DNA from: an uncultured Candidatus Saccharibacteria bacterium
Lineage (GTDB): Bacteria; Patescibacteriota; Minisyncoccia; Phycocordibacterales; UBA9988
NCBI GenBank assembly: GCA_964401135.1
Contig: CAYNXC010000001.1
Coordinates: 122,778-186,777, forward strand
Reading direction: 5' to 3'
DNA: 64,000 nt
The notes beneath the pieces are model-generated. The model did not search any database. It was not told where the DNA came from and was given only the letters and a program-made list of their open reading frames with translations. Within the stretch, counting starts at the first letter, position 1; each line of letters begins with the position of its first letter. The translations under genes were made by a program, and so were the position numbers. Positions 23,243-48,426 of the stretch are shown one piece after another.

Positions 23243-23584
23243 TTATTTTTTGGTATCCGTTACTGTTTTAGCAGCTTTGGCGGCTGCAATTTCGGCCTCT
23301 CTCTTCTTCTCTTCTAACTCTTTTTGCATCTTACCTCCGTGGCGCATAAACTTACGGGTAGGAGAGAACTCGCCGAGGCGATGGCCAACCATATCTTCTG
23401 TCACCAAGACCTCAATGTGACTGCGACCGTTGTGAACGCCAAAAGTAAAGCCCACCATCTCTGGGGCAATCTGGCTTGCGCGGGACCATGTCCGGACCAC
23501 AGCAGAATCCGCGGGGCGTTTGCCTTCTATCTTTTTTAGTAATTTGGGGTCAATGTACGGACCTTTTTTAAGTGATCGCGCCAT
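23243..23584 (-). CDS. rpsS: Ribosomal protein uS19 with a Lys/Glu-rich C-terminal extension
   Basis: [19 protein letters not shown]...[12 protein letters not shown]. Confidence 0.9.
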
Positions 23585-23616
23585 AAAAAAACGATAGCTC
23601 CTACGAGCCAGATTCC

Positions 23617-23645
23617 ATACTACAAAAACACTAGAACCCTGTCAA
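23617..23645 (-). promoter_or_regulatory. Sigma70-like promoter for the rpsS...rplE fragment
   Basis: On the minus strand, TTGACA, a 17-nt spacer, then TAGTAT, located about 30 nt upstream of the rpsS start. Confidence 0.5.
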
Positions 23646-23704
23646 CTAGGGCGTTTTAGGCCTCCTATCAATAAAAAGCCTATCTCTATGGTATATTTAG
23701 TGTA

Positions 23705-24577
23705 ATGCTGCTGAAAATTGACCTCAAAAAAAGCCCTGAGGAAGATATCGCCTTAATACACAGGTATTTTTTTGAGACAAAGACGGACCATTTTAAAAAA
23801 AGGATTCTACGATTCTACAAAACACTAGAAGACAAATTATCTACTGAGACTGAGGAAAATCACGCTCAAGTTATTGATAGTTTTTTTAAAGATATCTATA
23901 GAAATAAGGCGGAAGAAATAGAGACAATAGTGGATCAGAGCGAGAAAATCATTGATGAAGAATCAACACAGTGCTTGGGAGAACTGGCTAAATTGATGGA
24001 TTATGATACTGAGAAGGAAGAAATATTTATCGCAATACCAACATTATTACCCTTTTCCCCTTTTAATCGACCTATTTTTTATTTTTCTATTGTCTCTAGT
24101 CTATTTAAAGATGGAAAAAACAGCATATTAGATACTGCGATTCACGAGATATCCCACTTTCTCCTCTTTGACATCTTGGACGAATTGGAAATCAATCTGA
24201 ACGATACTCAGGAAAATAAAGACTTCCTCCATCTGTTTAAAGAAGCACTGACTGGGATGTTACTGTCAGAGAAAGAAATGAGTGAATGTCTTGGCATGAA
24301 AGAATACTTTGGAAATCCAGAGGTCCATAATTTAAACATCAAACTCGAAGACGGGAAGCAACTGGTATTTCGTGAATATCTACGTTCAATACTCCATCAG
24401 TACCGGCAACAAGATCTCTCCTTTCAACAATTTATTGCAGATACAATAGAGATACTCCGGCCAAAAGCAGAAGAATTCAGTAAGAAAAAAATATTTTGGA
24501 ATAAAAATGAGCAAAAAATATTAAATAGGGATGAAGAATTATCAAAAGAATACGGGCAACCTATTTTAATTCAGTAA
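23705..24577 (+). CDS. HExxH-motif protein, paralog 1 (putative metallopeptidase-like, function unknown)
   Basis: AIHEISHFLLF, then a shared FLHLFKEAL...LL region. Paralogous to 27993..29084 and 30518..31201. Confidence 0.5.
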   Translation: MLLKIDLKKSPEEDIALIHRYFFETKTDHFKKRILRFYKTLEDKLSTETEENHAQVIDSFFKDIYRNKAEEIETIVDQSEKIIDEESTQCLGELAKLMDYDTEKEEIFIAIPTLLPFSPFNRPIFYFSIVSSLFKDGKNSILDTAIHEISHFLLFDILDELEINLNDTQENKDFLHLFKEALTGMLLSEKEMSECLGMKEYFGNPEVHNLNIKLEDGKQLVFREYLRSILHQYRQQDLSFQQFIADTIEILRPKAEEFSKKKIFWNKNEQKILNRDEELSKEYGQPILIQ

Positions 24578-24756
24578 TCATAAAATAAAAAAGTGGATAC
24601 AATACTAGAGATTGTATCCACTTAATAGATTCAGGCAATGCTTTGACAGCTATGGTCACAGCTGTCGCAAGAGTGATCGGAGTCAGTATTGCAGTCTGTA
24701 TCACAGTCGGAACCGCAATCACCACATTGATTTGATGAACATTTCTAATAACATCG

Positions 24757-25002
24757 TTAACTAAGCAACGTTATCTCACTATCCTCAACCTTCCTCATCT
24801 CAAGTATCTCTTCTTTATTGAGGTCTAAGAAATCAATCACTTCATCATTTTTTGCGTTAAATCCTATCCTACATATAGAATCTTTCTCCCACATAAACAC
24901 GCCAACACACTTGTATTGATTGCCATCACTGCCCTGTATGAGTAATTCAACAACCGTGTTGTTTTCTGTATCGTTTCGATCATTGGGGATTATAGTAGTC
25001 AT
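24757..25002 (-). CDS. Hypothetical protein (81 aa), last gene of a small three-gene operon
   Basis: Overlaps the upstream ORF by 4 nt. No recognisable motif. Confidence 0.35.
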   Translation of the reverse strand: MTTIIPNDRNDTENNTVVELLIQGSDGNQYKCVGVFMWEKDSICRIGFNAKNDEVIDFLDLNKEEILEMRKVEDSEITLLS

Positions 25003-25571
25003 ACAATAGTGTGTATATCAGTGATAAACGCTTTGGGTATAATATAGTAGGTAGGCTTTCCATCAGGATGGTTTACCGCCGGAGCAGGATATGTTCGGAT
25101 AGTTTCTGGGTCTCTTAACACGATGTGATCATCGCACACGCTGTGAAGAATTCCTTCGGAATACATTGTGGAGCAATCTCCCCTCTCCGCATTGCCCACA
25201 TACACAACATCTCGCCAAGTAACTGCTACGCGTGACGATTCTTTTAGATTACTGGGGATGGTAATTTTGAAGTCTTTGCTTACAGAGAGTAGCGCGGAAT
25301 CAGGAATGACCAGTCCTTTTACAATAAAGCTGTCATCAGTCCCATCCTGTCTTCCTGATGCAGATACATTTTTTATAAAAGTAATAATGATGTTATCCCC
25401 ATTCTTTTTCACATACCCAAACGCCTCGTGTGGGGATAATTTGGTTTCGCCAACTTTCTCTTCAAAAAGGTAGTAGGCATCAATGTATTTGATTTTACAG
25501 ATTTCCTCCATAGGTTCATTATATAAAGAAAGCGGATAGGTTGGTACAAACCCTATCCGCTCGATGATCAT
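24999..25571 (-). CDS. Hypothetical protein (190 aa)
   Basis: ORF only. Sits 8 nt downstream of a small Ser/Asp-rich ORF. Confidence 0.4.
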   Translation of the reverse strand: MIIERIGFVPTYPLSLYNEPMEEICKIKYIDAYYLFEEKVGETKLSPHEAFGYVKKNGDNIIITFIKNVSASGRQDGTDDSFIVKGLVIPDSALLSVSKDFKITIPSNLKESSRVAVTWRDVVYVGNAERGDCSTMYSEGILHSVCDDHIVLRDPETIRTYPAPAVNHPDGKPTYYIIPKAFITDIHTIV

Positions 25572-25578
25572 GGTACTA

Positions 25579-25785
25579 TCAGCCGAAGATGGATTTCCAG
25601 AATCCAGTTGCTGCTTTGCCGGAGTCGTCGTCCCGAGGGAATGGTGTACTGTTCAGTGAAGAATTCCCCCTCTCAAACAATCCAGCATCGGTCGCATCAT
25701 CCCGAGCACTGTGCTCAGCAGAAGAGACTTTACCCAGAGAATCTCCGCTATGTGCAGAGGTATCTCCGTCTGTCCATTTACCCAT
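25579..25785 (-). CDS. Small Ser/Asp/Gly-rich protein (about 68 aa, from the ATG at 25785)
   Basis: AAAGGAAG sits 8 nt upstream of the ATG. The product MGKWTDGDTSAHSGDSLGK... leads the operon immediately after the HK stop. Confidence 0.35.
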   Translation of the reverse strand: MGKWTDGDTSAHSGDSLGKVSSAEHSARDDATDAGLFERGNSSLNSTPFPRDDDSGKAATGFWKSIFG

Positions 25786-25883
25786 AACGCCCACTTCCTT
25801 TCTACAAAGTTCAAGGCTCTGTACTCAGAAAATCTGAGTAGAAGTTACTAAACATAGTTTACACTAATCTACTATTTTGTCAA

Positions 25884-27551
25884 TTACCCCTTCTTCGCAG
25901 GGAGCTCCACAATAAAGGTGGAACCGGTACCGGCACCAGTACTCTCGGCCCAGATCTTGCCTTTGTGTGCCTCCACCATCTGCTTGGCCACATATAAGCC
26001 CAGACCGGTACCAGAGTAGTTGACCTTGCCGGCGTCATCGGCGCGGACAAACTTCTCAAAGAGCTTGTGCATCACCTCCGGCGTGAGTCCCACGCCGCTA
26101 TCCTTAATCGCAATGCGCACCTTAGCCTCGCCGTCGCTCACCTTTACTTCAATGGAGCCCGTGGGCGTGTACTTAATGGCGTTGTCGACAAGGTTAGAGA
26201 TCACCTGACTCAATTTACCCGGATCGGCGGTAATCTCATATTCCCCTTCCTCGGCAATAAAGTTGAGCGTGAGCCCCTTCTGTTCGGCGGAAACCTTCAT
26301 TGTAGAGACAACCTTCTCGACGAGATCCCTCACATTCAAGTTGGAAAACTCGTACTTCATCCGTCCCAGCTCAATGCGAGTGACATTCAAAAAATCTTCG
26401 ATCACCACCACGAGCCGCTGACTGGAGTCAAAAATATTTTGGAGCGGCTGGTGCATCTTCTCCCCCACCTCGCCGTAGGAGCCCTCCAGTAACATTGAGG
26501 TGTAGCCCTTGATGGCGGTTAAGGGGCTGCGCAATTGGTGCGAGGCAATGGAAACGAATTCCGTCTTTTGCCGATCCAATTCCTTGAGCTTGAGGTTTGC
26601 TGCAAAGAGACTGTCGTTCGCTTTTGCCAAGTCTCCAGCGAGTCGCTCAATGCGCTCGCGTTGCGCCACCTCCCCCTTTACGCTCCTAACCAGGATGTAG
26701 CCAAAACCGATGGCGATGATGAGGGTAATACCCGTGAGCACAATGTTGACCGGATTTCTCACAAAGAAGAACTCGGACGCAATGAGGATGACCAAGCCCA
26801 CCACCAAGGCCTGTGTGGCGAGGAGCTTAATGTTAAAGGCTTTGAACTGCACAATGAGGTACGCCAAGAAGCCCATAAAGACAAGCATCCCAAAGAGGCC
26901 GTACTGCTCCAATTCAAAGTTATCGATCGCGCTCGCCAAGTAGCCGGTAACGAAAAAGGAGAGGAGGAAGAGGAGCATCCCCACACCGAGCGGCACAATC
27001 TGCTTGCGTAGTGCTGGCTTGACCTTACGGTACCGCACAACAATGACCCTAAATGTCCAGAGCATGAAGATGAGCCCAAGGAGATAGTAGTAGCTCGTGA
27101 AGTAGTGCCCTTCGTGTACTTCACAGTTAGGGAGATCAAAATATTGGAGGTTCCATCTTGATGAGGCAAAGAGGATGACGGGGAGTAAAAGGATGGAGAT
27201 AATGAGCTTTGTATTAAACGAAATATCTTTTTTATCTATATACACATAGACGAAGTACAAACAGAGAGCATACAACAGTGAATACAACACTCCAAACGCC
27301 GGCCAGATAAACTGGATCAGACTAACATTATTATTAGTCCAAGCAATTAGGCTAAGAAAAGACCATAAAGAAAAGACTATTGAGATAGACACTAAAATAG
27401 TTCCGACTAAATTACGCGCACGCACAAAAACAAAAATCCCGATCAATAGTGAGACTATGACTGCGGGAATATGCGAATAATAGAGAAGCCCAGGAACAGA
27501 ATCTGAGAAGAATAAAAACTGCGGATTTGGAATATCGCTACAGAAGATCAT
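25884..27551 (-). CDS. Sensor histidine kinase with a large (about 7-8 TM) N-terminal membrane domain
   Basis: HisKA (IASHQLRSPLTAIKGYTSML) and HATPase_c (GTGLGLYVAKQMVEAHKGKIWAES). No response regulator is adjacent. Confidence 0.85.
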   Translation of the reverse strand: MIFCSDIPNPQFLFFSDSVPGLLYYSHIPAVIVSLLIGIFVFVRARNLVGTILVSISIVFSLWSFLSLIAWTNNNVSLIQFIWPAFGVLYSLLYALCLYFVYVYIDKKDISFNTKLIISILLLPVILFASSRWNLQYFDLPNCEVHEGHYFTSYYYLLGLIFMLWTFRVIVVRYRKVKPALRKQIVPLGVGMLLFLLSFFVTGYLASAIDNFELEQYGLFGMLVFMGFLAYLIVQFKAFNIKLLATQALVVGLVILIASEFFFVRNPVNIVLTGITLIIAIGFGYILVRSVKGEVAQRERIERLAGDLAKANDSLFAANLKLKELDRQKTEFVSIASHQLRSPLTAIKGYTSMLLEGSYGEVGEKMHQPLQNIFDSSQRLVVVIEDFLNVTRIELGRMKYEFSNLNVRDLVEKVVSTMKVSAEQKGLTLNFIAEEGEYEITADPGKLSQVISNLVDNAIKYTPTGSIEVKVSDGEAKVRIAIKDSGVGLTPEVMHKLFEKFVRADDAGKVNYSGTGLGLYVAKQMVEAHKGKIWAESTGAGTGSTFIVELPAKKG

Positions 27552-28069
27552 ATATTGTTAATTTTATCTGCAATGTATTGTTGAAAATATCCCTTATATT
27601 TTAACTGGAGCTCAGGAATTTTCCAATCTTCTCCTGTGATTTTAGAACGACAAGAGCTACTGCCACACTGACAATTCATCACATAAAATTGATCTCCTGA
27701 ATGAGCAACGGCCATTGCGTAATCAAAACAAATTTCTTCTTCTTCTTTTATTTTTTTGATTGCAATAAGGCGTATCTGTCCTAAAAATCCAGCATTTGGT
27801 TCACAAGAATGATTGAAGTAATCGGCTAATTCAGATTCACCACAAGAGGATAAGACAAAGTTGTCATCAATCTGAACTCCTGAATCTTTATGCTCCTGAG
27901 GCAGGATTGCTTCCTCCTCCAAGCTTAAGATATAGCCACCAAATAGAGCCAGTGTCTCATTCTTTTTTATATCTGCCTTTGCAAACACCCCTTTGCCATA
28001 CTCACCAGTCTCCTGCACCTCCAACTTTGGGCTCATCCACGAGAAGGGTCTCTGTTGTGCCGATGTCAT
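27548..28069 (-). CDS. SET-domain protein (putative protein-lysine methyltransferase)
   Basis: GKGVFA, NHSCEPN, EEICFDY and a post-SET CQCGSSSC. Its stop and the HK start overlap by 4 nt. Confidence 0.85.
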   Translation of the reverse strand: MTSAQQRPFSWMSPKLEVQETGEYGKGVFAKADIKKNETLALFGGYILSLEEEAILPQEHKDSGVQIDDNFVLSSCGESELADYFNHSCEPNAGFLGQIRLIAIKKIKEEEEICFDYAMAVAHSGDQFYVMNCQCGSSSCRSKITGEDWKIPELQLKYKGYFQQYIADKINNI

Positions 28070-28087
28070 ATCTCTCTATTGTAGCAC
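27979..28087. repeat. Copy A of a roughly 110-bp element repeated three times, covering the SET start codon and first 30 codons
   Basis: Near-identical to 32497..32605 and partly to 30433..30519. The conserved core is GTGCTACAATAGAGAGATATGACATCGGCACAACAGAGACCCTTCTCGTGGATGAG on the minus strand. Confidence 0.8.
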
Positions 28088-29084
28088 CTTCACAATAGGG
28101 GGAGAATCGGTATATACTGCCTCTATGCCAAATAGTTTTCGTATTAACAAATTATTCAATAAATTAATATTTATTGGAGAAATCTGCCAGATCAGAAACA
28201 ACCCTTGGAACAAAGAGCGGGTTGAACAGTGGCTAGCAGGCAATGGTGGTGCACTCTCTACAATTGAACAATCGTCAATAAAGAAAATCACTGATATAGC
28301 ATCAGAAGTAGGCATCAATCTCATTGAGGCTTATTTTTTGACCAAAGAGAATGAACAATTGTGGAATATTTTGGGACAAGAGATTGGAACAACTCACACG
28401 GGGGCAATTAAAGAAGTACTTGAGAATTTTTCTCATCGTTTTGACATCGTCTGGCAGAAAGAAGAAACGCATCTCATGAGAATAAGTAAATTTTTTAACT
28501 CACAATCAAAAAAAATAGAAACGGCATTAGCACAAGTAGAATCCCTCACAGGATTACAGAACAAAACAAAGCTCACTGACATACCCATACAGTTAGCAAT
28601 GAGCAGTGCAGAAGAGGATGATATTGTAGGATGGTACTCAACCTTTGAAGAAAAAACGGATCTTGTGCTGGAATGTTCTGGAGTAATTGAGAATAATTTC
28701 CCTTTTCTTGAAGCAGTGTTACTGCACGAACTGTTCCATCTTGCATTAAGAAGTCACTCTGTAGTGATGCCTTTGATTGTGAGTGTTGCTGATGAAAATC
28801 AAGACCTCCTCAGTCCCCTCTCTCAAGATATGCCGCCTTTCCAAATTCTTGAGGAGCTACTCATCAGTTCTTTTACTCCAGAGGGATACTTGGCAACAAA
28901 ATACTTTAACACCACGATAAGTATTGCGGAAAAAACTGACGAATCAGTGCTTCACAACTTCACATTGATCAGACGGCGGAGTGCTCACGCAATGAGAAAT
29001 CTGGCGAAAGAATATACGGATGAAAAAAAGTGCATAGATAAGATGTACTTAAACTCCCTCACTGAGACAATAAAAAACGGGTAG
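27993..29084 (+). CDS. HExxH-motif protein, paralog 2. An alternative start at 28125 would exclude the repeat-derived N-terminus.
   Basis: LLHELFHLAL and a shared downstream region. The first 44 codons are antisense to the SET N-terminus and repeat. Confidence 0.5.
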   Translation: MPYSPVSCTSNFGLIHEKGLCCADVISLYCSTFTIGGESVYTASMPNSFRINKLFNKLIFIGEICQIRNNPWNKERVEQWLAGNGGALSTIEQSSIKKITDIASEVGINLIEAYFLTKENEQLWNILGQEIGTTHTGAIKEVLENFSHRFDIVWQKEETHLMRISKFFNSQSKKIETALAQVESLTGLQNKTKLTDIPIQLAMSSAEEDDIVGWYSTFEEKTDLVLECSGVIENNFPFLEAVLLHELFHLALRSHSVVMPLIVSVADENQDLLSPLSQDMPPFQILEELLISSFTPEGYLATKYFNTTISIAEKTDESVLHNFTLIRRRSAHAMRNLAKEYTDEKKCIDKMYLNSLTETIKNG

Positions 29085-29122
29085 TGTATATGCACTACCC
29101 GTTATCGGGACCGAGTTGGAGT

Positions 29123-29248
29123 TTATTTCCTGTTGGCCCAGTGCCCTTTATCCCAAGGACCCTTGGCTTCGCCCTTGAGAGCTTGTTCTTTTGCTCGAAG
29201 TAATACTCGCGGAATTACGACTGATTTGCTTTGTTGAGAATTTTTCAC
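29123..29248 (-). CDS. Small ORF (41 aa, GTG start) just downstream of the radical SAM gene. Candidate precursor peptide.
   Basis: AAAGGAGGTGA lies 5 nt upstream of the GTG. The product is MKNSQQSKSVVIPRVLLRAKEQALKGEAKGPWDKGHWANRK. Below the ORF-track length cutoff. Confidence 0.35.
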   Translation of the reverse strand: MKNSQQSKSVVIPRVLLRAKEQALKGEAKGPWDKGHWANRK

Positions 29249-29287
29249 GGTAGTCACCTCCTTTCTGTCCTTAAGATCAATTCAATA

Positions 29288-30358
29288 TTACCCTACCAAT
29301 AAACCGTAGCTTATCAAGGTTTTCTGTATTTCTTCAAAAACTCTGAAATTTGCCGCGCAGACAGTATCTTTATTTCCATTCACATAATCTTTAAGACACC
29401 CACCGTGACAAAGAGTGTTCCATGGACAAGAAGTACATGCTGCTCTTGACCGTTGTGAGAGCTGGAGAAATTCTTGAAAATTGCTTCTCTCTACAACGTC
29501 ACTATAGGATTCCGTGACAGTTCCGAAACAAAAACAAGATTCGTTAAGTAAGCTGTCGCAAGGAAAGATTGACCCATCATTGTAGACAGTCACAAATTGA
29601 TCGCAGCGCCCCATGAGCGTACATTCACGGAATTCGCCGCCAAGAAGGATGTCAATGATGCTTTTGATATCACGAATTTCTAGATCAGGATTATCTATGT
29701 CAATCCAATGATGAAAAATCTTGATCAAAAAATCGGCGTACTGGTCTGCCGTGATAGCGTTTGAATCAGGTTCACGGATACGCAGGAACTTAATTGAATG
29801 GATATCACATGAGAGAAAAAACGAAATAATATCTTTTACCAAAGAGTAGTTTTGTCTTCCTATGCAACAGCTGACCCCGTTGAAAATTCCATTCTCTCGC
29901 AAATGAGTAATCCCACGGAGAACATCCTTGAGGTTCCCTTCCCCAGCACGAGAGACTCGGAGAGTGTCATGGATTACCGGCGGAGCATCAAGGCTTACCC
30001 CGACACAGAATTGTAATCCTGCAAACAACTTTGCCCATTCTTCATTGAGAAGGGTACCGTTTGTCTGCACAAAGTTTGCAATTTTTTTACCTTGGCGAAT
30101 CCATTCTGTCTGTAGCTGCCCAACAGCGCGATAAAATTGCATACCGGCAAGTAGTGGCTCACCTCCGTGCCAGACAAACTCAATTTCATCTTGATGAGAA
30201 CAGAAGAAATTAATGGTTGCTTGCAATGTCTCTTGCGACATTACTGCAGTAGATGACCGTTGTGGATCTAGAATTCCTCGCATGTAGCAATAACAACAAT
30301 TAAGGTTACATGCTCCATTCACCGGTTTAATGATGGGTACACTGAGTGGATTTCTCAC
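29288..30358 (-). CDS. Radical SAM enzyme with a C-terminal SPASM domain (peptide/protein maturase-like)
   Basis: CNLNCCYC (CxxxCxxC) N-terminal cluster. The C-terminal Cys cluster CTSCPWNTLCHGGC is SPASM-like. GTG start with a GAGGT RBS. Confidence 0.85.
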   Translation of the reverse strand: MRNPLSVPIIKPVNGACNLNCCYCYMRGILDPQRSSTAVMSQETLQATINFFCSHQDEIEFVWHGGEPLLAGMQFYRAVGQLQTEWIRQGKKIANFVQTNGTLLNEEWAKLFAGLQFCVGVSLDAPPVIHDTLRVSRAGEGNLKDVLRGITHLRENGIFNGVSCCIGRQNYSLVKDIISFFLSCDIHSIKFLRIREPDSNAITADQYADFLIKIFHHWIDIDNPDLEIRDIKSIIDILLGGEFRECTLMGRCDQFVTVYNDGSIFPCDSLLNESCFCFGTVTESYSDVVERSNFQEFLQLSQRSRAACTSCPWNTLCHGGCLKDYVNGNKDTVCAANFRVFEEIQKTLISYGLLVG

Positions 30359-30432
30359 GGGAGATACCTCGTTTCTTTATTATTTTAAAGGTTCAAATAT
30401 ATCTGGTATTTTTATACCACATTATTCAACTT

Positions 30433-30519
30433 TATGCAAACCTCAGCACTTCCACCTTAAGACTCATCCACGAGAACGGTCTCTGCTGTGCCGATGCCAT
30501 ATCTTTCTATTGTAGCACT
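30433..30519. repeat. Copy B of the element, forming a 22-codon uORF (30433..30501, minus) upstream of the radical SAM gene
   Basis: The uORF encodes MASAQQRPFSWMSLKVEVLRFA*, which is homologous to the SET N-terminus. It shares the junction TTTGCATAAAG...AATAATGTGGTATAAA with copy C. Confidence 0.7.
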
Positions 30520-31201
30520 ATCGGGAGTGAGGAGAAGATAACAGATTGAGTGATGAACTGACAAAAGCCTTCAGATCTTTACCGCTCTTTTCCCAGAGAA
30601 TTTGATGATGTTCTAGTGAGGTTTGTAAGTCGGGATAGAAGAGCTCTTCAGGACGACCAAGTACCACTTGCGCTTCAGGCTCGTTTAGGAGAATAACATT
30701 GAGAATTTCGGAGAGTTCCCACAATGGACCGCCATTCTTACTAAGATGTAGAGTTTCCTCCTTAAAATGCAGGTCAAGATATTTGAAGAAGACAAAGTGC
30801 AGGACCTCGTGGAACGCGACCTCAATGCGGTCCAGTAAATCTTTTTTATAGTAGACTTGGAATGTCTCGTCCTCCACAAAGCGAGGATTGCAATTAAATA
30901 TAGAGAGAAAACCTTTGTACTCGTGCGAGTGACTCTCCTCTCCAAAATAGTGGCGAGTGAAATTAAAGAATGTGGAGGATCGCTGGCCAAGCTCGTTGTT
31001 AGTCTCCTCAAGAATTTTGGCAAACTCTTGAGCATGAGCATCGTAAAATGAGTCTATGTACTGTGTACTATTCTCCGCAGTGATAGTGGAGTGGGCATCG
31101 CGAATCATCGCACCAAAATCGCGCCCAGCAACAGCAAAATTATGAAAATCGGTATAGGTTTCGTAATCCTGCTCTTTGTTCAATTCAATAGTAATCATCA
31201 T
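30518..31201 (-). CDS. HExxH-motif protein, paralog 3 (start at MMITIELNK; the ORF extends to 31291)
   Basis: AFHEVLHFVFF. An ATGA overlap with the upstream CYTH gene. Confidence 0.5.
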   Translation of the reverse strand: MMITIELNKEQDYETYTDFHNFAVAGRDFGAMIRDAHSTITAENSTQYIDSFYDAHAQEFAKILEETNNELGQRSSTFFNFTRHYFGEESHSHEYKGFLSIFNCNPRFVEDETFQVYYKKDLLDRIEVAFHEVLHFVFFKYLDLHFKEETLHLSKNGGPLWELSEILNVILLNEPEAQVVLGRPEELFYPDLQTSLEHHQILWEKSGKDLKAFVSSSLNLLSSPHSR

Positions 31202-31770
31202 TCCTTCTCCAATCCAGCCTGCACAAGTGCGAGATGCATCATCCCTATCGCCTCTGGTCGATCGGTGAGATTGAGGTGCGTGAGTATCCACTGCTTCAGT
31301 TCCCCTCTGATAGAATTACTCACCTCCTTGGGAACTTCTATCTCACACTCTATAAAGTATCGGTGTCCGTTAGAAAAAGTGAGGTCGTCAAGAGAAAATA
31401 CACAGGGGTAGGTAAAGAGCGTACCCGCAAAGTCGCGACGGGTTTTATGCAATGAGAGATGAGTCCCCTCTCCCTGTAACTCTGTCAATTCATCCGCCGT
31501 GCTCGCCCCTTCTACTTCGCGCCGCATCCGTTCTCCTTGCTCGTTTAAATACCATGTTTTTTCTGTTTTTTCGTAGTCCGTCCCGTTGTACACTCTAATA
31601 CGGGTAAAGTCCCATCCTTTGTCATCAAATTTTTTGAAATGGAAATAATGATCGCCTAACGATGACTCCTTACTCAAGGGGTACCCGAGAGTTGGGAGTG
31701 CTTCAATACAGTGTGCATACTCCTCTGTATTCAATTCCAATTTAATCTCGGTCTCAATGTGGTCTTTCAT
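31198..31770 (-). CDS. CYTH-domain protein (class IV adenylyl cyclase / triphosphatase fold)
   Basis: N-terminal ETEIKLEL (the ExExK signature of CYTH). Confidence 0.55.
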   Translation of the reverse strand: MKDHIETEIKLELNTEEYAHCIEALPTLGYPLSKESSLGDHYFHFKKFDDKGWDFTRIRVYNGTDYEKTEKTWYLNEQGERMRREVEGASTADELTELQGEGTHLSLHKTRRDFAGTLFTYPCVFSLDDLTFSNGHRYFIECEIEVPKEVSNSIRGELKQWILTHLNLTDRPEAIGMMHLALVQAGLEKE

Positions 31771-31830
31771 TATTGTATTTGTTTTTAATAAAAACGACTG
31801 AATAATGATCCTTATTCAGTCGTTGGTATT

Positions 31831-32424
31831 TTAGACTAGTTGGATTTTTTCTACAACCTCGTCCAAAGTTAGGTTTGTAGTATCGATTACAATTGGATCA
31901 AAAAGTGTTCTTGCATAATTAACCATAGCCTCTTCCATCCGTAAGAAGAAATCTGGATCCCGTATTACTTTTAAGTCATTCACGGTAACTTTTTCTGGTG
32001 ACTCTTTCATCCTTTTTCGAAGCCTTATCCTCCTCTCTTCAAGACTGGTAGTAAGAATGTAGACGCCTGTAAACCTAGGATGAAGTAAAGCTAAAGCCTC
32101 CAATCTTGCAAGAATCACGCTGAAATGAGCGGCGGCATGATAGGCGAGCGATCGTAAAAGAATTGTAGAGTCTTGGATTGTCGCTGAAATTGGCCAAGAA
32201 AAACGTTTCAGGTCATATTCTAACGCCTTCGCGTAAAGATACCCGATCCATTCAGAACCATCTTTTTCGATTTCTTTTGCAACTTGCAGAATATGATTAC
32301 TACCCAATAGAGATGAATGGCGGACCGTATAGTTTGGGTTGAGATGGTGAAGTCTTCGGATAACACTGGACTTTCCTGAAAGATCTATTCCTTCGACTAG
32401 ATAATACGGGACAGGTTTTTCCAC
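31831..32424 (-). CDS. P-loop kinase, thymidylate-kinase-like
   Basis: Walker A EGIDLSGKSS, then IQDSTILLRSLAYHAA (compare Tmk DRY..SS.AYQ). GTG start. Confidence 0.5.
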   Translation of the reverse strand: MEKPVPYYLVEGIDLSGKSSVIRRLHHLNPNYTVRHSSLLGSNHILQVAKEIEKDGSEWIGYLYAKALEYDLKRFSWPISATIQDSTILLRSLAYHAAAHFSVILARLEALALLHPRFTGVYILTTSLEERRIRLRKRMKESPEKVTVNDLKVIRDPDFFLRMEEAMVNYARTLFDPIVIDTTNLTLDEVVEKIQLV

Positions 32425-32496
32425 TTTTCTTTCCTCAAAAATCTAAGTTTTTTCAAGAGCCATGCTCTATTCCATTTATACCATATTATTTGGCTT

Positions 32497-32605
32497 TATG
32501 CAAACACCCCTTTGCCATACTTCCCCGTCTCCTGCACCTCCAACTTTGGGCTCATCCACGAGAACGGTCTCTGCTGTGCCGATGTCATATCTTCTATTGT
32601 AGCAC
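32497..32605. repeat. Copy C of the element, forming a 30-codon uORF (32496..32588, minus) upstream of the Tmk-like/CYTH/HExxH operon
   Basis: The uORF encodes MTSAQQRPFSWMSPKLEVQETGKYGKGVFA*. The listed 63-aa ORF 32476..32667 lies in a different reading frame. Confidence 0.75.
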
Positions 32606-32666
32606 TCTTTTATTTCTAGCTCCCAGTGGTAATCCGAGGTGCGGTGCGCTATGATAGGGTTACACA

Positions 32667-33965
32667 ATGAATATTCTGTTTATCACCAACGAGCTCATCG
32701 GTGGTGATGTGGCTTATCAGCTGACCAAAGAAGGGCACCAGGTAAAGCTATTCATCAAGGAGCGTGGAAGCAAGCACGACTTGGATGGTCTGGTAGAAAA
32801 GACGAGCAACTGGCGTCATGAGCTCTCTTGGGTCGGTAAGGACGGCCTCATCATCTTTGATGATGTGGGCTACGGCAAAGTCCAAGATGAGCTACGGCAG
32901 AAAGGATTCTCGGTCTTTGGCGGCTGTGAGAAGGCCGACCTCCTCGAGACCAACCGCCAGTACGGCAAGGAGCTCCTTGCCCACCATGGACTCAAAGGGC
33001 TCCCCTCCTACAACTTTGACTCCATCAGTGACGCTATCGGATTTGTGGAGCGCAACCGCGGACGCTGGGTCGTCAAACAGAACGGCCGCGCCTCAAAGGG
33101 CTTCAACTATGTTGGACACTTCCCCGACGGGAGAGATGTCATCAATGTTCTTGAGAACTACCGCGCCTTTGCCCGATACCGCTCATCAGTCATCACTCTC
33201 CAAGGATTTGTAGACGGCATAGAGATTGGAGTCGGCCGCTACTTCAATGGGAAGGATTGGGCAGGCCCTATTGAGATAAACATTGAGCATAAAAAACTAT
33301 TTCCCGGGGACTTAGGCCCAACCACCAGCGAGATGGGGACGCTCGCTTGGTACGACGACAATGAGGAAAATAAACTGTTTAGAGAAGCACTCGCCCCAAT
33401 CAGAGGGCATCTTGAAGAAATTAAGTATAGAGGAGACATTGATGTGAACTGCATTGTCAATGAGCATGGAGCCTTTCCTCTCGAGGTTACCGCGCGCATG
33501 GGCACCCCCGCCATCCACCTACACAGCGAACTGCACACAAGTCCCTGGGGAACATTTTTGAAAGAGATCGCTGACGGCAAGCCAAGCACATTGAAATGGA
33601 AAAAAGGGTTCGGCATCGTCGTCCTCATCGCCGTACCCCCATTCCCCTACGCTAAGCAAGTGCAGACAAACTCATCGCTCAGTACCACCATCCATTTTTC
33701 AGAGAAATTGCGTGCAGAAGGGCTCCCTCACATCCATTTTGAAGAGGCACGCTTTGATACAAAGACCAATCAGTACATTATTTCAGATACAAACGGCTAC
33801 CCGCTCTACATTACCGGCATGGGCGAGACTGTAAAAGAAGCTCGGCACGCAGTGTACCGTAGCATTAAAGAAACTTATATACCAAAAATGTTCTACCGTA
33901 ACGACATCGGGCTCAAATTTATGGAGCATGATGAGGAGAAGCTCCGCTCGTGGGGCTACCTATAA
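32667..33965 (+). CDS. ATP-grasp enzyme, PurD-like (phosphoribosylamine--glycine ligase family)
   Basis: 432 aa. An N-terminal Rossmann-like segment and a central ATP-grasp pattern (WVVKQNGRASKGFNYVGHF). Confidence 0.45.
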   Translation: MNILFITNELIGGDVAYQLTKEGHQVKLFIKERGSKHDLDGLVEKTSNWRHELSWVGKDGLIIFDDVGYGKVQDELRQKGFSVFGGCEKADLLETNRQYGKELLAHHGLKGLPSYNFDSISDAIGFVERNRGRWVVKQNGRASKGFNYVGHFPDGRDVINVLENYRAFARYRSSVITLQGFVDGIEIGVGRYFNGKDWAGPIEINIEHKKLFPGDLGPTTSEMGTLAWYDDNEENKLFREALAPIRGHLEEIKYRGDIDVNCIVNEHGAFPLEVTARMGTPAIHLHSELHTSPWGTFLKEIADGKPSTLKWKKGFGIVVLIAVPPFPYAKQVQTNSSLSTTIHFSEKLRAEGLPHIHFEEARFDTKTNQYIISDTNGYPLYITGMGETVKEARHAVYRSIKETYIPKMFYRNDIGLKFMEHDEEKLRSWGYL

Positions 33966-35496: not shown

Positions 35497-35697
35497 CTAG
35501 CGGGCGATGAATGGCAGGAGTGCGAGGAAGCGTGCTCGCTTAATGGCTAGCGCGAGCTTGCGCTGGTGCTTGGAACATACCGAGCTCCGACTCTTCCCTA
35601 TCATGCGCGCGTGCGTATTCATAAAGCGCTTCAAAAGCTCTGTGTCCTTGTAGTCCACATGCTTTACATTACTGGTGCAAAAGTGACATTGCTTCAT
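35497..35697 (-). CDS. rpsR: Ribosomal protein bS18
   Basis: CHFCTSNVKHVDYKDTELLKRFM...RKLALAIKRARFLALLP. Confidence 0.85.
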   Translation of the reverse strand: MKQCHFCTSNVKHVDYKDTELLKRFMNTHARMIGKSRSSVCSKHQRKLALAIKRARFLALLPFIAR

Positions 35698-35699
35698 AC

Positions 35700-36152
35700 T
35701 TAAAATGGAATATCGTCTGGGTTAACTTCTTCACTGGGGTACTCTATCGTCTCTATGTCCGTGGTAGCGCTGGAGACTCTCCCTGTACTTGCAGGAGCTG
35801 AGCTACTTGCCCCCTCCCCTCCATCGCGACGGGGACCAAACTGCATCGTCTCGGCAACAATCTCGGTGCGGTACTTTTTCTGCCCATCTGAAGCATCCCA
35901 ACTCCGCGTCTGCATCCGTCCTTCAATGTACACAGCGCCTCCGCGGTGCAAGTACTGTGCGGCGAGCTCGGCCAGCTTGGCAAAGCAGACTACATTATGG
36001 TACTGCACATCCTCCTGTCGCGCGCCATTCTTATCCTTCCAAGTGCGGTTGGTTGCCACTGAGAAGCTGGTCACCGAGGTACCATTCGGGAGCCGGCGCG
36101 CTTCTGGGTCGCGAGTCAGATTGCCATAGATGAGAGCTTTGTTCAAGTACAT
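35700..36152 (-). CDS. ssb: Single-stranded DNA-binding protein
   Basis: An OB-fold NKALIYGNLTRDPEARRLPNGTSVTSFSVATNRTWKD and the C-terminal acidic tip DDIPF. Confidence 0.9.
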   Translation of the reverse strand: MYLNKALIYGNLTRDPEARRLPNGTSVTSFSVATNRTWKDKNGARQEDVQYHNVVCFAKLAELAAQYLHRGGAVYIEGRMQTRSWDASDGQKKYRTEIVAETMQFGPRRDGGEGASSSAPASTGRVSSATTDIETIEYPSEEVNPDDIPF

Positions 36153-36157
36153 AGGTA

Positions 36158-36655
36158 CTATGCGACTTTCTCCTCCGTCAACAGTTCCTCAATCCCCTTT
36201 GTAATCTCCGCCTCGTCTGCCTCCGTAAGTGAGCGCTTTTCAGCAGTATCCACAGGAGCACCGGCGCGAGCTGCCATCTGCGGTATACGGCGGATCGGAG
36301 CAGGATTCTCTTTACCTGCGATCATAATGAGAAAGCGGACCAGTGTCTCAACTTTTTCTAGTCTCGCCTTCACTGTGAGCACCTCCTCGGGTATGAGGGT
36401 AAATTTAATATATCCAAAGTATGCCTGCTGAAGCTGTTGCTTAACCCCTCCTACACGGTATGCAATGGGGTACGAGAGTGGGCGGAGTGCAGGGTACCCT
36501 TCACCGACAATGACACCCTTGGCCTTCTCGATTTCATCACGAATACGGGCAAGCTCTACTCCAATAGACTCTTCAGAGAGAGACGGGGTAAACAAAAAGC
36601 CGACCTCGTAGGTTGTGTGCTCGTCTGCTTGCGTATATGTTTCCGCTGTACTCAT
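36158..36655 (-). CDS. rpsF: Ribosomal protein bS6 with a C-terminal extension
   Basis: YEVGFLFTPSLSEESIGVELARIRDEI...YFGYIKFTL. Confidence 0.8.
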   Translation of the reverse strand: MSTAETYTQADEHTTYEVGFLFTPSLSEESIGVELARIRDEIEKAKGVIVGEGYPALRPLSYPIAYRVGGVKQQLQQAYFGYIKFTLIPEEVLTVKARLEKVETLVRFLIMIAGKENPAPIRRIPQMAARAGAPVDTAEKRSLTEADEAEITKGIEELLTEEKVA

Positions 36656-44583: not shown

Positions 44584-45100
44584 GAAGGAGTGAATCAGAG
44601 AGTGTATGCGGGGTAATAAAACGCACTAGTGAGGCACACTCCTCCAAGAAACCTGCACGAGCGAGCATTCGTAAGAGCGTCAGGAGTTCAGCGTGCGGGG
44701 CAAGTGTCCGTCGAGAGACATCGTCTACACTTAAGTACTCAACCAAGGAGAAGAGGTCATGAAAGAGATCAGTGTGTGGGTCATCGGGGAGCGTGAGCTC
44801 ATAGGCAAGAGAGCAGAGTCGTGCCGTGATAGCGCGTGAATGCGCCAAACGCGTATGAGCGCGTGAAAGTGTCTCCGCGCCGGTCACTCGCCAAATCGCC
44901 TTCCCCCGCACCAGAGAGAGCCGTGTGAGTGTGTAGTCTTGCAAGTGGTAGCGAAGTTTCGACTTGAGCACGCGCACACTCTGCGCGTGTGCAGTGAGCA
45001 CCCCCAGATCCTCTGTCAAAAGATGTAGTATCTTATGTCCCTCCCCTTCTACCCGCGACTTAAGTATGAGCGCACGGGTTGTATGAATGTGGTAAGCCAT
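44492..45100 (-). CDS. recO: DNA repair protein RecO (divergent)
   Basis: An N-terminal OB-like TRALILKSRVEGEGHKILHLLTEDLGVLTAHA. The size is consistent. Confidence 0.5.
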   Translation of the reverse strand: MAYHIHTTRALILKSRVEGEGHKILHLLTEDLGVLTAHAQSVRVLKSKLRYHLQDYTLTRLSLVRGKAIWRVTGAETLSRAHTRLAHSRAITARLCSLAYELTLPDDPHTDLFHDLFSLVEYLSVDDVSRRTLAPHAELLTLLRMLARAGFLEECASLVRFITPHTLSDSLLREFEPVSPRGFSLAEETLTRAQVAETAVLY

Positions 45101-48100: not shown

Positions 48101-48426
48101 TTTTTTGCGGCATCATTAAACTTCTCAATACCATACGCTTCAATATCTTTTTTTGTTTTGAGGTCAAGCTCCTTCTCTACCACATTTTCTACCGGGAGAC
48201 CGTGACAGTCCCAGCCCCAACGGCGGCGGAGCTTCTCACCCAGCATCACGCGGTAGCGCGGAACCGCATCTTTGATGGCGCTTGCTAAGAGATGTCCGTA
48301 GTGTGGAAGGCCTGTCGCAAAAGGAGGGCCATCGTAAAAGATAAAGGGTTTGTCCCCGCGATTTTCAGTCTTGGCAAAAATATCCTTCTCCTTCCAAAAT
48401 TGTAGAATCTTTTTCTCGTAGTCCAT
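45100..48426 (-). CDS. ileS: Isoleucine--tRNA ligase (type 2) carrying an inserted histidine-phosphatase domain
   Basis: FYDGPPFATGLPHYGHLL and KMSKRLKN. Residues about 478-658 contain ILLRHGE...LVVSHG, a PGAM-like insert. Confidence 0.9.
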   Translation of the reverse strand: MDYEKKILQFWKEKDIFAKTENRGDKPFIFYDGPPFATGLPHYGHLLASAIKDAVPRYRVMLGEKLRRRWGWDCHGLPVENVVEKELDLKTKKDIEAYGIEKFNDAAKKSVLRYTEEWKEIIPRFGRFVDMVHDYRTMDPSYTESVWWAFKTLYDKGLIYEGYKPMHICPRCETTLANFEVNQGYKDVTDISVTVKFPLVGEDLTFLLAWTTTPWTLPGNVALAVSTGLTYIRAKVGEEIYILSKDRAPHILTGEYDVLGELSGAELVGKKYLPPFSYFSEDATLKNREKGWTVYAADFVTAEDGTGIVHIAPAFGEDDMVLGMREELPFVQHVGMDGRFTLAVSDFAGIPVKSKDDPQAADILILKYLVGRNLLFAKEKIIHSYPHCWRCDTPLLNYAASSWFVKVTAFKDELLKANEAITWIPSHIKEGRFGKWLEGARDWAISRSRFWGAPLPVWRCNSCNDMTVIGSLKDLSDAHPLHNTYILLRHGEIDANISGEVSADATKVTPLTPDGIHTVEKSAEELKEEKPDLILHSPFYRTKETTRIVAVALDIPQEEIIEVPALRELNPGNFSGGTWESYWEHKPDDGEDRDSVLQRMEGFLQETESRYLGKRILVVSHGLPLFMLRKVIEGEGAHLGTGEWYRTTSRRLPRNADGEIDLHRPYIDAIQFPCSCGGVHTRVSEVFDCWFESGSMPFAEAHYPFEEQGSFDPARGTGFPADFIAEGLDQTRGWFYSMLVLGVGLFGVSPYRNVIVNGLILAEDGQKMSKRLKNYPDPVEVMERYGADALRFYLLSSPVVRAEDLNFSEKGVAEVYRKNVVRLTNVRSFLELYRPQGHVLPDYHESTVLLDQWIRARLDELQTQVEEAMDAYELDRATKPISTFIDDLSTWYLRRSRERFKDEGGLSIVSATLTHVLKEVSKIIAPFMPFLAEEIYLSVRETSDPESVHLALWPVSSGGDPGTLQLMATTRELVSVALKWREREGIKIRQPLSTMKVKTLVPEAYLALIRDEVNVKEVLEGRDMGELVWLDTIITPVLREEGTVREFVRSIQDFRKSGSCAPKETITLTIHARKEEQLLLEKYRAELEQATATVLTLTEGEEFAISRS

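Follow-up and report, generated by a model that had tools for sequence, protein, structure and literature searches.

A radical SAM/SPASM enzyme, a 41-aa peptide and a convergently encoded HExxH protein (HExxH2) form a three-gene RiPP cassette in the 64,000-nucleotide stretch of Candidatus Saccharibacteria DNA analysed here (the window). The cassette recurs in ~85 other DNA stretches from metagenomes and Patescibacteria MAGs, mostly of Patescibacteria, and its labelled hosts are almost all Patescibacteria or CPR lineages. Judged by sequence, the product is most likely a cross-linked ribosomal peptide, of which we found no description in the literature, and the cassette, by analogy with known systems, is best read as encoding a new, triceptide-like RiPP family (three-residue cyclophanes). 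The 9-kb block around it probably consists of this one biosynthetic cassette and unrelated neighbour genes.

The peptide, (M)KNSQQSKSVVIPRVLLRAKEQALKGEAKGPWDKGHWANRK, is encoded at 29123..29248 on the minus strand and starts with a GTG at 29248, 6 nt after AAAGGAGGTGA; the 41-aa ORF with a Shine-Dalgarno sequence described in the first-pass annotation is indeed present. A metagenome search with a DNA pattern for W-D-(K/Q)-G-H-W-A-N returned 68 matches, 66 with a precursor-like ORF; these yielded 47 unique homologous peptides, whose starts are preceded by a Shine-Dalgarno sequence, and 21 more were obtained from MAG loci. The homologues have in common the leader P-K-V-L-L-Q-A-K-K-E-A, then between one and four W-(D/E/N)-K units, and lastly a near-invariant GPWDKGHWANRK end. 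Each peptide carries 2-6 W-x-(K/Q/R/N) motifs, with Y-E-K replacing W-D-K in some; aromatic-X-Lys/Asn triplets (W-D-K, W-A-N) build the C-terminal core, and Cys is absent from the peptide. In the metagenome set, W-D-K-G-H-W-A-N is invariant partly because the search pattern demanded it; neither the G-P and R-K residues flanking the pattern nor the set seeded with HExxH2 (see below) carries this bias. A core this close to invariant suggests that the peptide acts with a conserved molecular partner and is not a diversifying antibiotic. The precursor family has no NCBIfam entry and is described in no paper that we found; from its sequence features, the 41-aa ORF is predicted to be a genuine precursor peptide. 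It is arranged as an operon with the radical SAM gene, with an extended -10-like box upstream (in repeat copy 2, see below) and, after the peptide, a strong intrinsic terminator (29076..29103, minus strand; an 11-bp stem with 6 GC pairs, then a T run) that closes the operon and sits between the convergent genes.

Gene order around the peptide is well kept. Among loci found through the peptide only and fetched with enough flank, 50 of 57 have the radical SAM gene directly upstream, and 55 of 58 have HExxH2 downstream in convergent orientation. When neighbours were clustered over the ~85 loci, HExxH2 was present in 79 and the radical SAM enzyme in 75; the third most frequent family occurred in 5. 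These two were the only families to recur within 6 kb of the peptide, with no third; the histidine kinase (HK), SET, CYTH, Tmk-like, HExxH1 and HExxH3 genes discussed below were not recurrent there, nor was any transporter, and the same census revealed no exporter or immunity gene conserved with the cassette. With HExxH2 alone as an independent starting point, 30 loci were retrieved from GTDB species genomes: the peptide stands beside HExxH2 in 21; in 18 of these the fetched flank contains the radical SAM gene as well, and in the remaining three the fetched DNA ends, or shows no match, beyond the peptide. Peptide conservation and the recurrence of this arrangement in the neighbourhoods of homologues in other CPR genomes support the earlier suggestion of a ribosomal-peptide maturation unit, made up of the 41-aa ORF, the radical SAM/SPASM enzyme and, among the HExxH proteins, HExxH2.

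The putative maturase (29288..30358, minus strand; 356 aa) is anSME-like and has no RRE domain. Both Cys motifs expected of a radical SAM enzyme with a SPASM-type C-terminal cluster were found, CX3CX2C at C17-C24 and CX2CX5CX3C at C308-C321, and Pfam Radical_SAM (PF04055) matches with 59 bits. The enzyme passes no curated NCBIfam cut-off, cyclophane-maturase models included: anSME scores 245 bits against 349.45 and DynA 214 against 450, followed by DarW, DarE, YhhB and GrrM, all below cut-off, and the YhhB, GrrM, AmcB, FxsB and XyeB models give 102-141 bits. PDB sequence matches include anSMEcpe (4k37, E 1e-43) and the ChlB radical SAM domain (E 6e-26). By these sequence comparisons the enzyme is placed between the anaerobic sulfatase maturases and the cyclophane/darobactin-type maturases. 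An ordinary anaerobic sulfatase-maturating enzyme beside an incidental 41-aa ORF is an extremely improbable reading, even though anSME ranks first among both the NCBIfam models and the PDB sequence matches. The best of 30 family members (E 3.8e-94, ~316 bits by estimate) is still below the anSME cut-off, as is the enzyme itself, and the closest ~60 relatives among the matches listed, at 37-62% identity, rank above the anSME-named proteins, which are only 29-34% identical; these relatives, from metagenomes and CPR-type bins, are unnamed or called 'radical SAM protein'. Moreover, the enzyme family adjoins the peptide in 75 of the ~85 peptide-bearing loci, the C/S-x-P-x-R sulfatase motif is absent from the peptide, and no sulfatase gene was detected among the window ORFs scanned. 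The sub-cut-off score, the unnamed closest relatives and the peptide linkage thus speak against the sulfatase-maturase case, which the first-pass annotation had itself raised.

HExxH2 (28125..29084, plus strand; 319 aa) has a zincin-like fold with the motif HELFHL. Comparison with homologues sets its start at ATG 28125, not 27993, and the 5' extension of the ORF from 27993 overlaps a repeat (copy 1 below). We propose that the radical SAM enzyme would bind the helical leader (IPRVLLRAKEQA) and that 5'-deoxyadenosyl radical chemistry would join each Trp ring to the beta-carbon two residues downstream; every link would close a small three-residue cyclophane (-2 Da), comparable to those in triceptides and to darobactin's Trp-Lys ring, a cross-link type suggested by motif and family resemblance only. 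HExxH2 would then process the modified peptide, either as a leader peptidase or as an aKG-HExxH-like hydroxylase. As the favoured version, it may act as a metal-dependent peptidase that removes the leader by cutting in front of the first ring's Pro-Trp; a Pro ahead of that ring is a usual site of cleavage (PMC12912966). Alternatively, HExxH2 might be, instead of a peptidase, an aKG-HExxH-type oxygenase dependent on Fe(II) and alpha-ketoglutarate that beta-hydroxylates the Asp and/or His of rings already formed, like ChlH; we regard this as rather unlikely. Y-D-R is the motif on which ChlB acts, and hydroxylation of Asp and His by ChlH follows ring formation (PMC11499958, PMC12636437); such aKG-HExxH enzymes (PMC12636437) are a real precedent for the pairing of HExxH proteins with radical SAM/SPASM RiPP maturases that the first-pass annotation mentioned. 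By sequence HExxH2 is not a member of TIGR04267 (13 bits, cut-off 40). Homologues occur without the radical SAM enzyme or the peptide in 9 of the 30 species and also in the sister genome L001, and HExxH2 is therefore not strictly dedicated to the peptide.

Two further HExxH proteins are encoded in the block: HExxH1 (23705..24577, plus strand), a zincin-like protein of 290 aa with HEISHF, and HExxH3 (30518..31201, minus strand), a zincin-fold protein of 227 aa with HEVLHF. HExxH1 matches HExxH3 (BLASTP E 2e-7; hhalign 94%, E 1e-7) and the HExxH2 family (hhalign 80%, E 1.4e-5), and the HExxH3 family matches the HExxH2 family (hhalign 50%, E 1.6e-4); direct BLASTP of HExxH2 against HExxH3 and of HExxH1 against HExxH2 was not significant. 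HExxH1 is, at the level of sequence, a bridge between the HExxH2 and HExxH3 families. Of the three paralogues claimed previously, all are real and homologous, but they are remote homologues rather than close paralogues, and we found no membership of a housekeeping family.

The 9-kb block, in which every ORF named in the first-pass annotation exists, is hypervariable and made up, mosaic-like, of independent modules. It is flanked by ribosomal protein genes (S19 at 23243-23584; S18/SSB/S6 at 35497-36655) that are common to the sister genomes L001 and L002, with different content between them, and its GC is 0.36-0.44 versus ~0.50 in the flanks, the HK gene (0.53) excepted. Apart from the cassette, these modules are SET-HK-p71-p190-p81, Tmk-like | CYTH-HExxH3, and HExxH1. 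The SET-domain methyltransferase gene (27548..28069, minus strand; PF00856, 51 bits) is the first of its operon, with a 4-nt overlap between its stop and the start of HK; HK (25884..27551, minus strand), a multi-pass membrane sensor histidine kinase with HisKA, HATPase_c and a weak HisKA_7TM match, is a core gene with normal GC. The SET-HK pair was correctly recognised. The short ORFs at 24630..25785, previously taken for extra small peptides, turned out to be a conserved three-gene set and not precursors: p71 (25579-25794), p190 (24999-25571) and p81 (24757-25002), all on the minus strand, encode proteins of unknown function of 71, 190 and 81 aa without Pfam or NCBIfam family matches, the latter two being also called on the NCBI contig. 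In locus L110 they are 62, 49 and 38% identical, in the same order, beside an HExxH1 homologue and an HK. The CYTH-domain gene (31198..31770, minus strand; PF01928, 28.4 bits, cut-off 23.2) overlaps HExxH3 by 4 nt, consistent with translational coupling, and has an orthologue 91% identical at the equivalent position in L001. The P-loop kinase-like ('Tmk-like') protein (31831..32424, minus strand) has only sub-threshold Pfam matches (Thymidylate_kin 17.4 against 27, AAA_18 21.4 against 29.4) and no homologue in any fetched locus, and a terminator-like hairpin (31793-31824) separates its gene from CYTH.

The three minus-strand operons are each headed by one copy of a SET promoter/5' fragment. 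Copy 1 (27980..28087) is the genuine SET promoter-proximal region with the first ~30 codons; copy 2 (30411..30518), upstream of the radical SAM operon, has TGCTACAAT (an extended -10-like box) and a truncated SET 5' fragment; copy 3 (32499..32606), upstream of the Tmk-like gene, has the same -10-like box and 30 SET codons then a stop, and matches copy 1 at 94% identity over 108 nt. All lie on the minus strand, and the '22-codon uORF' reported at 30433..30501 is a truncated duplicate of the SET 5' end, one base off at 30432-30500.

This shared fragment (~60-108 nt) could place the three operons under common transcriptional control in this genome, and it is an argument for the whole block being one system that makes, senses or responds to a modified peptide, or a defence module, as first suggested. 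L002 retains a homologous repeat copy downstream of its HExxH3 gene; a few loci (L064, where an HExxH1 homologue adjoins HExxH2; L041/L056; L018/L073; L089) have HExxH1, HK or HExxH3-like genes close to the cassette; and HExxH3-family genes are often found beside other radical SAM-plus-small-ORF operons. We nevertheless consider a single system very unlikely, since the neighbourhood census, in which only the radical SAM enzyme and HExxH2 recurred, largely refutes it. The GC of HK is that of the core genome, and its orthologue in L041/L056 stands after a PurD-like gene on the downstream side of the cassette, where a SET gene was not detected; L001 has a decayed SET gene, and another methyltransferase comes before HK; CYTH-HExxH3 is found with NUDIX and without the cassette; no response regulator was detected among the window ORFs scanned; and the repeat gave no RNA structure signal. 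Some functional link of HExxH1, HExxH3 and HK to the cassette may exist.

Among known systems, triceptides, whose defining feature is aromatic-to-C-beta cross-linking within Omega1-X2-X3 motifs (PMC11499958), are made by 3-CyFE enzymes (XyeB, GrrM/OscB, YhhB, HaaB, HtkB, ChlB, MicB) that are likewise small SPASM maturases without an RRE, and the precursor shares with them several C-terminal aromatic-X-X triplets (W-D-K, W-A-N, Y-E-K) and Pro before the ring motifs. Unlike theirs, the cassette enzyme is below every curated cut-off, the precursor (PKVLLQAKKEA leader, W-D-K repeats, GPWDKGHWANRK) is not in NCBIfam, and the cross-link is here a prediction from sequence. The darobactin and dynobactin maturases DarE and DynA are also anSME-like and RRE-free, darobactin contains a Trp-X-Lys C-C ring, and DynA is the second-best NCBIfam model; in contrast to daropeptides, the cassette peptide has repeated units, an unrelated sequence and no aromatic-X-aromatic motif for an ether bridge, the cassette has no DarBCD-type exporter, and the DynA score is far below 450. 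The anSMEs (TIGR03942) resemble the enzyme in being its closest HMM and solved structure by sequence and in equal length and three-cluster Cys pattern, but it falls below the family cut-off and its linked substrate gene encodes a small peptide without the sulfatase motif. For HExxH2, the comparison is with ChlBH and the aKG-HExxH enzymes (ChlH, BpmH, PflC/PosC; TIGR04267, IPR026337), from which it differs as a separate convergent gene rather than a fusion and by its own ~190-residue N-terminal helical domain; hydrolytic peptidase activity is at least as likely, and gluzincin metallopeptidases (M1, M13, M4, M30; SprT/Wss1-like minimal zincins; DUF2268, Peptidase_MA_2) are among the closest known systems.

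The radical SAM gene of the accessory block (29288-30358, minus strand), the 41-codon ORF behind it (29123-29248, minus strand) and the convergent gene of the HExxH-motif protein HExxH2 (28125-29084, plus strand) recur together in other genomes. The neighborhoods of three radical SAM homologs (62%, 44% and 45% identity) all contained a radical SAM gene, a small ORF and a convergent gene for a 290-317-aa protein without Pfam domain; on translation, the small ORFs proved homologous to the 41-codon ORF and the convergent proteins to HExxH2. Scanning of a metagenome collection with a degenerate DNA pattern encoding W-D-(K/Q)-G-H-W-A-N gave 68 matches, with a precursor-like ORF behind a Shine-Dalgarno site in 66. 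Among the peptide-seeded loci with enough flank, the radical SAM gene lies directly upstream of the peptide on the same strand in 50 of 57, and HExxH2 lies directly downstream and convergent in 55 of 58. When every ORF within 6 kb was clustered for about 85 loci, HExxH2 was found in 79 and the radical SAM enzyme in 75, against just 5 for the next family, indicating that the cassette is an autonomous three-gene unit set in many different genomic surroundings; over these 6 kb it has no conserved companion among exporters, immunity genes, kinases, SET, CYTH or additional HExxH genes. The first-pass annotation had proposed a ribosomal-peptide maturation and sensing locus. The maturation unit is supported by this recurrence, while a single joint locus is not, as the histidine kinase (HK), SET, CYTH, HExxH1 and HExxH3 genes do not recur with the cassette.

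With HExxH2 alone as seed (a 13-sequence alignment), an independent search of the GTDB species genomes yielded 30 loci, 21 of them with the same peptide and the same ending; in 18 of these 21 the retrieved flank contains the radical SAM gene as well. The hosts are mostly labelled as Patescibacteria, i.e. candidate phyla radiation (CPR), lineages (Wolfe-, Jorgensen-, Ryan- and Azambacteria, Paceibacterota, Parcubacteria, 'Saccharibacteria'), and the few labelled otherwise (Gammaproteobacteria, two archaeal bins or plain 'bacterium') are taken for mis-binning. In some cassettes two tandem HExxH genes follow 3' of the peptide (L032, 1486-3324; L064, 3777-5673), pairing HExxH2 with a second HExxH2-like gene or with a HExxH1 homolog.

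The 47 unique peptides (34-60 aa) have a common leader motif, (I/V)-P-(K/R)-V-L-L-Q-A-K-K-E-A, then a variable linker, then one to four W-(D/E/N)-K-(A/G) units, occasionally Y-E-K, and the ending G-P-W-D-K-G-H-W-A-N-R-K. In the metagenome set, conservation of the eight residues of this ending that the search pattern specified is forced by the search, whereas the flanking G-P and R-K are free of such bias. Of the 30 MAGs surveyed at species level, 21 keep the peptide end GPWDKGHWANRK nearly constant, as do dozens of variants from metagenomes, although the maturases have diverged to ~40% identity. Aromatic-X-X core motifs, the mark of triceptide precursors, are present in the window peptide as W-D-K and (H)-W-A-N and occur two to six times in each of the 47 homologs, Y-E-K variants included. 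Substitutions within the units (W to Y, D to E or N, K to Q) are consistent with the Omega1-X2-X3 logic of such motifs. The core peptide, made of aromatic-X-Lys/Asn triplets, is free of Cys, which excludes thioether chemistry, and that of the 41-aa peptide has no aromatic-X-aromatic triplet. The sole record of the 41-codon gene was one Logan contig, and the look-up found it absent from NCBI-sourced records. Other small ORFs of the block had been put forward beside it. None of them is an additional precursor: the 22-codon ORF is a SET fragment, and the ORFs of 71, 190 and 81 aa form a conserved trio unrelated to the peptide.

The radical SAM enzyme carries CNLNCCYC (CX3CX2C) at residues 17-24 and scores 59 bits with PF04055 (gathering threshold 29.5). 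A SPASM motif CX2CX5CX3C is present at residues 308-321 (CTSCPWNTLCHGGC, C308-C321), C246, C252, C267, C275, C277 and C334 are further Cys residues and candidate ligands of auxiliary clusters, and across 30 homologs each of these SPASM-region Cys is either invariant or conserved in at least 90%. The SPASM assignment made from the sequence is thus borne out by the motif and by PF13186 matches recorded for several homologs, while PF13186 itself was not reported for the window enzyme at E<=0.1. Every NCBIfam model ranked for the enzyme fell below its cut-off (in brackets): the model of anaerobic sulfatase-maturating enzymes (anSME, TIGR03942) with 245.4 bits (349.45), DynA with 214 (450), DarW with 154 (650), DarE with 148 (650), YhhB with 141 (445), GrrM/OscB with 137 (310), PapB with 128 (340), AmcB with 127 (425), FxsB with 116 (370) and XyeB with 102 (450). 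The ranking was unchanged in 30 relatives, whose best anSME-model E-value (3.8e-94, an estimated ~316 bits) is still below 349.45. Among solved structures, the nearest in sequence are those of anSMEcpe (E 1e-43) and of the radical SAM domain from ChlB, a triceptide synthase (E 6e-26). Identity to the window enzyme is 29-34% for proteins named anSME; the nearest ~60 relatives among the matches listed (37-62% identical) come from metagenomes and CPR-type bins and are unnamed or plain 'radical SAM protein'. An anSME with a sulfatase partner elsewhere, the possibility held against the first-pass annotation, would account for the leading model and structure matches, but was rejected on the sub-cut-off score and because the linked substrate candidate, the 41-aa peptide, contains no C/S-x-P-x-R sulfatase motif; no sulfatase was seen among the window ORFs scanned. 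The enzyme should accordingly not be annotated as an anaerobic sulfatase maturase.

An exhaustive search at E<=1e-3 placed HExxH2 in a family of 389 clusters, all single proteins of roughly 300-340 aa, with no Pfam or NCBIfam family at threshold and scattered weak SprT-like, DUF5700 and Wss1 matches alone. The suggestion of a TIGR04267-like HExxH domain found no support at the HMM level, since this aKG-HExxH model gave 13.3 bits (E 0.06) against a cut-off of 40 and any match in just 1 of 42 members; membership of TIGR04267, DUF2268 or Peptidase_MA_2 was not supported by HMMs. In the confident AF2 model of HExxH2 (pLDDT 89.5), a helical domain at the N-terminus is joined to a C-terminal part built from three strands, the helix with HExxH and additional helices. 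Alignment of the 42 members revealed H205 and E244 to be invariant and H201, E202, P252 and G254 to be at least 90% conserved, which is consistent with a predicted gluzincin-type site, in which a zincin fold carries HExxH and the third metal ligand is a Glu further downstream. The residues H201, H205 and E244 form a 2-His-1-carboxylate arrangement, used by zincins and by aKG-HExxH enzymes (PMC12636437). Foldseek gave no significant match in the PDB. We place HExxH2 in the zincin-like fold class, which fits a hydrolase and an oxygenase alike, because both classes use this arrangement.

Of these activities, we favor that of a leader peptidase, because the cassette has no other protease and because CPR-type organisms are less likely to use a step that depends on O2 and aKG. 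It is favored also because characterised triceptides are cut before the first ring, often at Pro (PMC12912966). A serious alternative is an aKG-HExxH-like oxygenase by analogy with ChlH, which hydroxylates Asp and His in rings that ChlB builds on Y-D-R (PMC11499958, PMC12636437). HExxH2 homologs stand without radical SAM enzyme or peptide in 9 of the 30 species and in L001, one of two sister genomes (L001 and L002), a caveat for the peptidase and oxygenase readings alike. Through the cassette, unannotated HExxH proteins that make up at least 389 sequence clusters would receive their first assigned function, which could be that of a novel leader peptidase or of a further branch of the HExxH oxygenases discovered recently.

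HExxH1 (23705-24577, plus strand), HExxH2 and HExxH3 (30518-31201, minus strand) had been described as three paralogs. Paralogy of HExxH1 and HExxH3 can be detected (BLASTP E 2e-7; hhalign 94%); HExxH1 aligns with the HExxH2 family (hhalign 80%, E 1.4e-5) over a region that takes in the HExxH motif as well as the Glu helix downstream of it, and the match of the HExxH3 family to the HExxH2 family is weaker (hhalign 50%, E 1.6e-4). Remote homology is thus detectable, but the three are separate families of one zincin-like superfamily and not recent paralogs. HExxH3 homologs adjoin NUDIX and/or CYTH genes (L001, L109, L110, L111) and FibroRumin-like radical SAM genes with Cys-containing small ORFs (L001, L002, L104, L110), and HExxH1 homologs adjoin HExxH2 in L064 and the trio with HK in L110. 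Because these associations are recurrent but loose, we still give a broader functional link a small probability. The second kind of radical SAM-small-ORF pair, found in related genomes beside HExxH3-family genes (L001, 12354-13953; L002, 10909-12541; L104, 5606-8092; L110, 2197-3519) has FibroRumin-like enzymes of 438-494 aa and small ORFs with Cys of 63 aa in L002 and 47 aa in L104 (e.g. ...PPCDCTACGSCRCTPCK), these two being the ones read; the small ORF of L001 is 58 aa long.

The block around the cassette (23600-32660) was correctly placed among conserved genes: it is bounded by ribosomal protein genes (S19, 23243-23584; S18, SSB and S6, 35497-36655), and its GC content is 0.36-0.44 against ~0.50 outside, the exception being the HK gene with 0.53. 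The features of the first-pass annotation were recovered with small corrections, namely a HExxH2 start at 28125 instead of 27993 by comparison with homologs and a sub-threshold Tmk-like match. On the minus strand, the P-loop kinase-like ('Tmk-like') gene (31831-32424) is separated by a hairpin (31793-31824) from CYTH (31198-31770), which overlaps HExxH3 by 4 nt; the radical SAM gene and the 41-codon ORF are followed by a strong terminator (29076-29103), SET (27548-28069) overlaps HK (25884-27551) by 4 nt, and the trio (24757-25794) is followed by a terminator (24591-24623). Pfam supported the SET domain (PF00856, 51.4 bits against a gathering threshold of 22.4), CYTH (PF01928, 28.4 against 23.2) and HisKA/HATPase_c of HK. 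A thymidylate kinase was not supported (PF02223, 17.4 bits against 27; TIGR00041, 17.7 against 83), the likeness being confined to the P-loop (GIDLSGKSS). No response regulator for HK was seen in a non-exhaustive scan of window ORFs.

The protein methyltransferase gene preceding the multi-pass sensor kinase differs in family by genome (window, 25884-28069; L001, 18968-20678), being SET in the window and L002 and a PRMT5/PrmA-like enzyme in L001. The trio p71 (Ser/Asp-rich), p190 and p81, named by length in aa, has a conserved order in the window and in L110 (7792-8875), without family matches, and is linked to HExxH1 and HK in these two distant genomes; p71 was absent from the queried protein collection in an exact look-up, which suggests that it is not called as a gene. 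The S10 ribosomal operon is split into S10-L3-L4-L23-L2 (53995-56874, minus strand) and S19-L22-S3-... (from 23584, minus strand), and the rplB-rpsS gap of ~30.4 kb holds the accessory block together with aaRS, RecO, SSB/S6/S18, NusG/L11 and dUTPase/dCTP deaminase genes. An isoleucyl-tRNA synthetase-like ORF of 1108 aa (45100-48426) has an inserted histidine-phosphatase (His_Phos_1) domain at residues 486-634. A PurD-like ATP-grasp protein (32667-33965; 107 bits, far below the purD cut-off of 288) is a conserved neighbor of HK or the cassette in L004, L041, L056, L001 and L002; genomes of the host type are thought to be without purine synthesis. A phage origin of the island was rejected, the peptide pattern being unmatched in viral contigs; no tRNA adjoins the island, and no integrase or transposase scored above threshold among the island proteins scanned.

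Three direct repeats (27980-28087, 30411-30518 and 32499-32606; copies 1-3) were found in the block, copies 1 and 3 being 94% identical over 108 nt and copies 2 and 3 96% over 57 nt. On the minus strand each copy opens with GTGCTACAAT, an extended -10-like box, and runs on past the SET start into its opening codons (MTSAQQRPFSWMSPKLEVQETG.YGKGVFA). Copy 1 belongs to the real SET gene; the reading frame ends after 30 codons in copy 3 and after 22 in copy 2, so that the supposed 22-codon uORF is a truncated SET 5' fragment; a junction sequence is common to copies 2 and 3 and missing from copy 1. One copy, with the -10-like TGCTACAAT, stands directly upstream of each of the three minus-strand operons, and the duplicated SET promoter fragment probably now drives all three. 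Homologous copies occur in the sister genome L002 (10676-10760 and 20490-20613), one of them diverged and at the same place, 3' of the HExxH3 gene and before a different radical SAM operon; the radical SAM-small-ORF pair of L002 that has a FibroRumin-like enzyme occupies the slot that the W-D-K cassette has after window copy 2. L001 keeps a decayed SET remnant beside its solitary HExxH2 gene, and the two sister genomes have flanking genes in common and different cargo. We read the region as a recombination-prone accessory region with a duplicated promoter/gene-start fragment, where the triple repeat could be a promoter duplication or a recombination hotspot. An RNA element was rejected, as five folded copies gave no common structure (z-scores -1.7 to +1.3); Rfam gave no match to the repeat at gathering threshold or at E<=1.

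The cassette is compact (three genes, about 2.4 kb), widespread in its group and unusually constant in its core, and its CPR host range and near-invariant core raise its interest. The CPR, whose organisms are mostly uncultured, has so far yielded very few known natural products or pathways of peptide modification, and to our knowledge none has been characterised. A constant core with a diverged maturase is typical of cofactor- or signal-like RiPPs such as PQQ and mycofactocin and not of diversifying antibiotics. The near-invariant core, set against the diverged maturases, therefore hints at a conserved physiological role; in these ultra-small, host-dependent bacteria the product could be a signal, a metal or cofactor ligand, or a host-interaction factor. 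That a small multi-cyclophane product is a conserved physiological molecule and that, jointly, the HExxH families form a new peptide-tailoring superfamily is a speculative reading to which we give perhaps one chance among several. If true, the three HExxH families would be a new zincin-fold peptide-tailoring superfamily, found largely in CPR-type genomes and repeatedly paired with different radical SAM peptide operons.

No description of the W-D-K precursor family, or of CPR triceptides or radical SAM RiPPs, was found in the searchable literature; these maturases may already figure as an unnamed, uncharacterised cluster in a published network. [quoted passage not shown] As the triplets match this signature and the unit substitutions fit its logic, the window peptide would carry two rings (W-D-K and W-A-N, or H-W-A) and its longer relatives up to about five, each ring with a predicted mass change of -2 Da. 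Compared with the daropeptides, the aromatic-X-aromatic motif is missing, so that the cassette is not a daropeptide cluster, and the DynA and DarE models stay at 214 and 148 bits against 450 and 650. With the triceptides the cassette shares the precursor motif, a likeness of motif and sequence with the cross-link itself predicted, while the 3-CyFE models YhhB, GrrM, AmcB, FxsB and XyeB give the enzyme 102-141 bits, each below its cut-off (310-450). The cassette would extend the cyclophane RiPPs by a new precursor/maturase family; its most likely way of working, by analogy, is that of a triceptide cluster in which a HExxH protein does the tailoring or processing.
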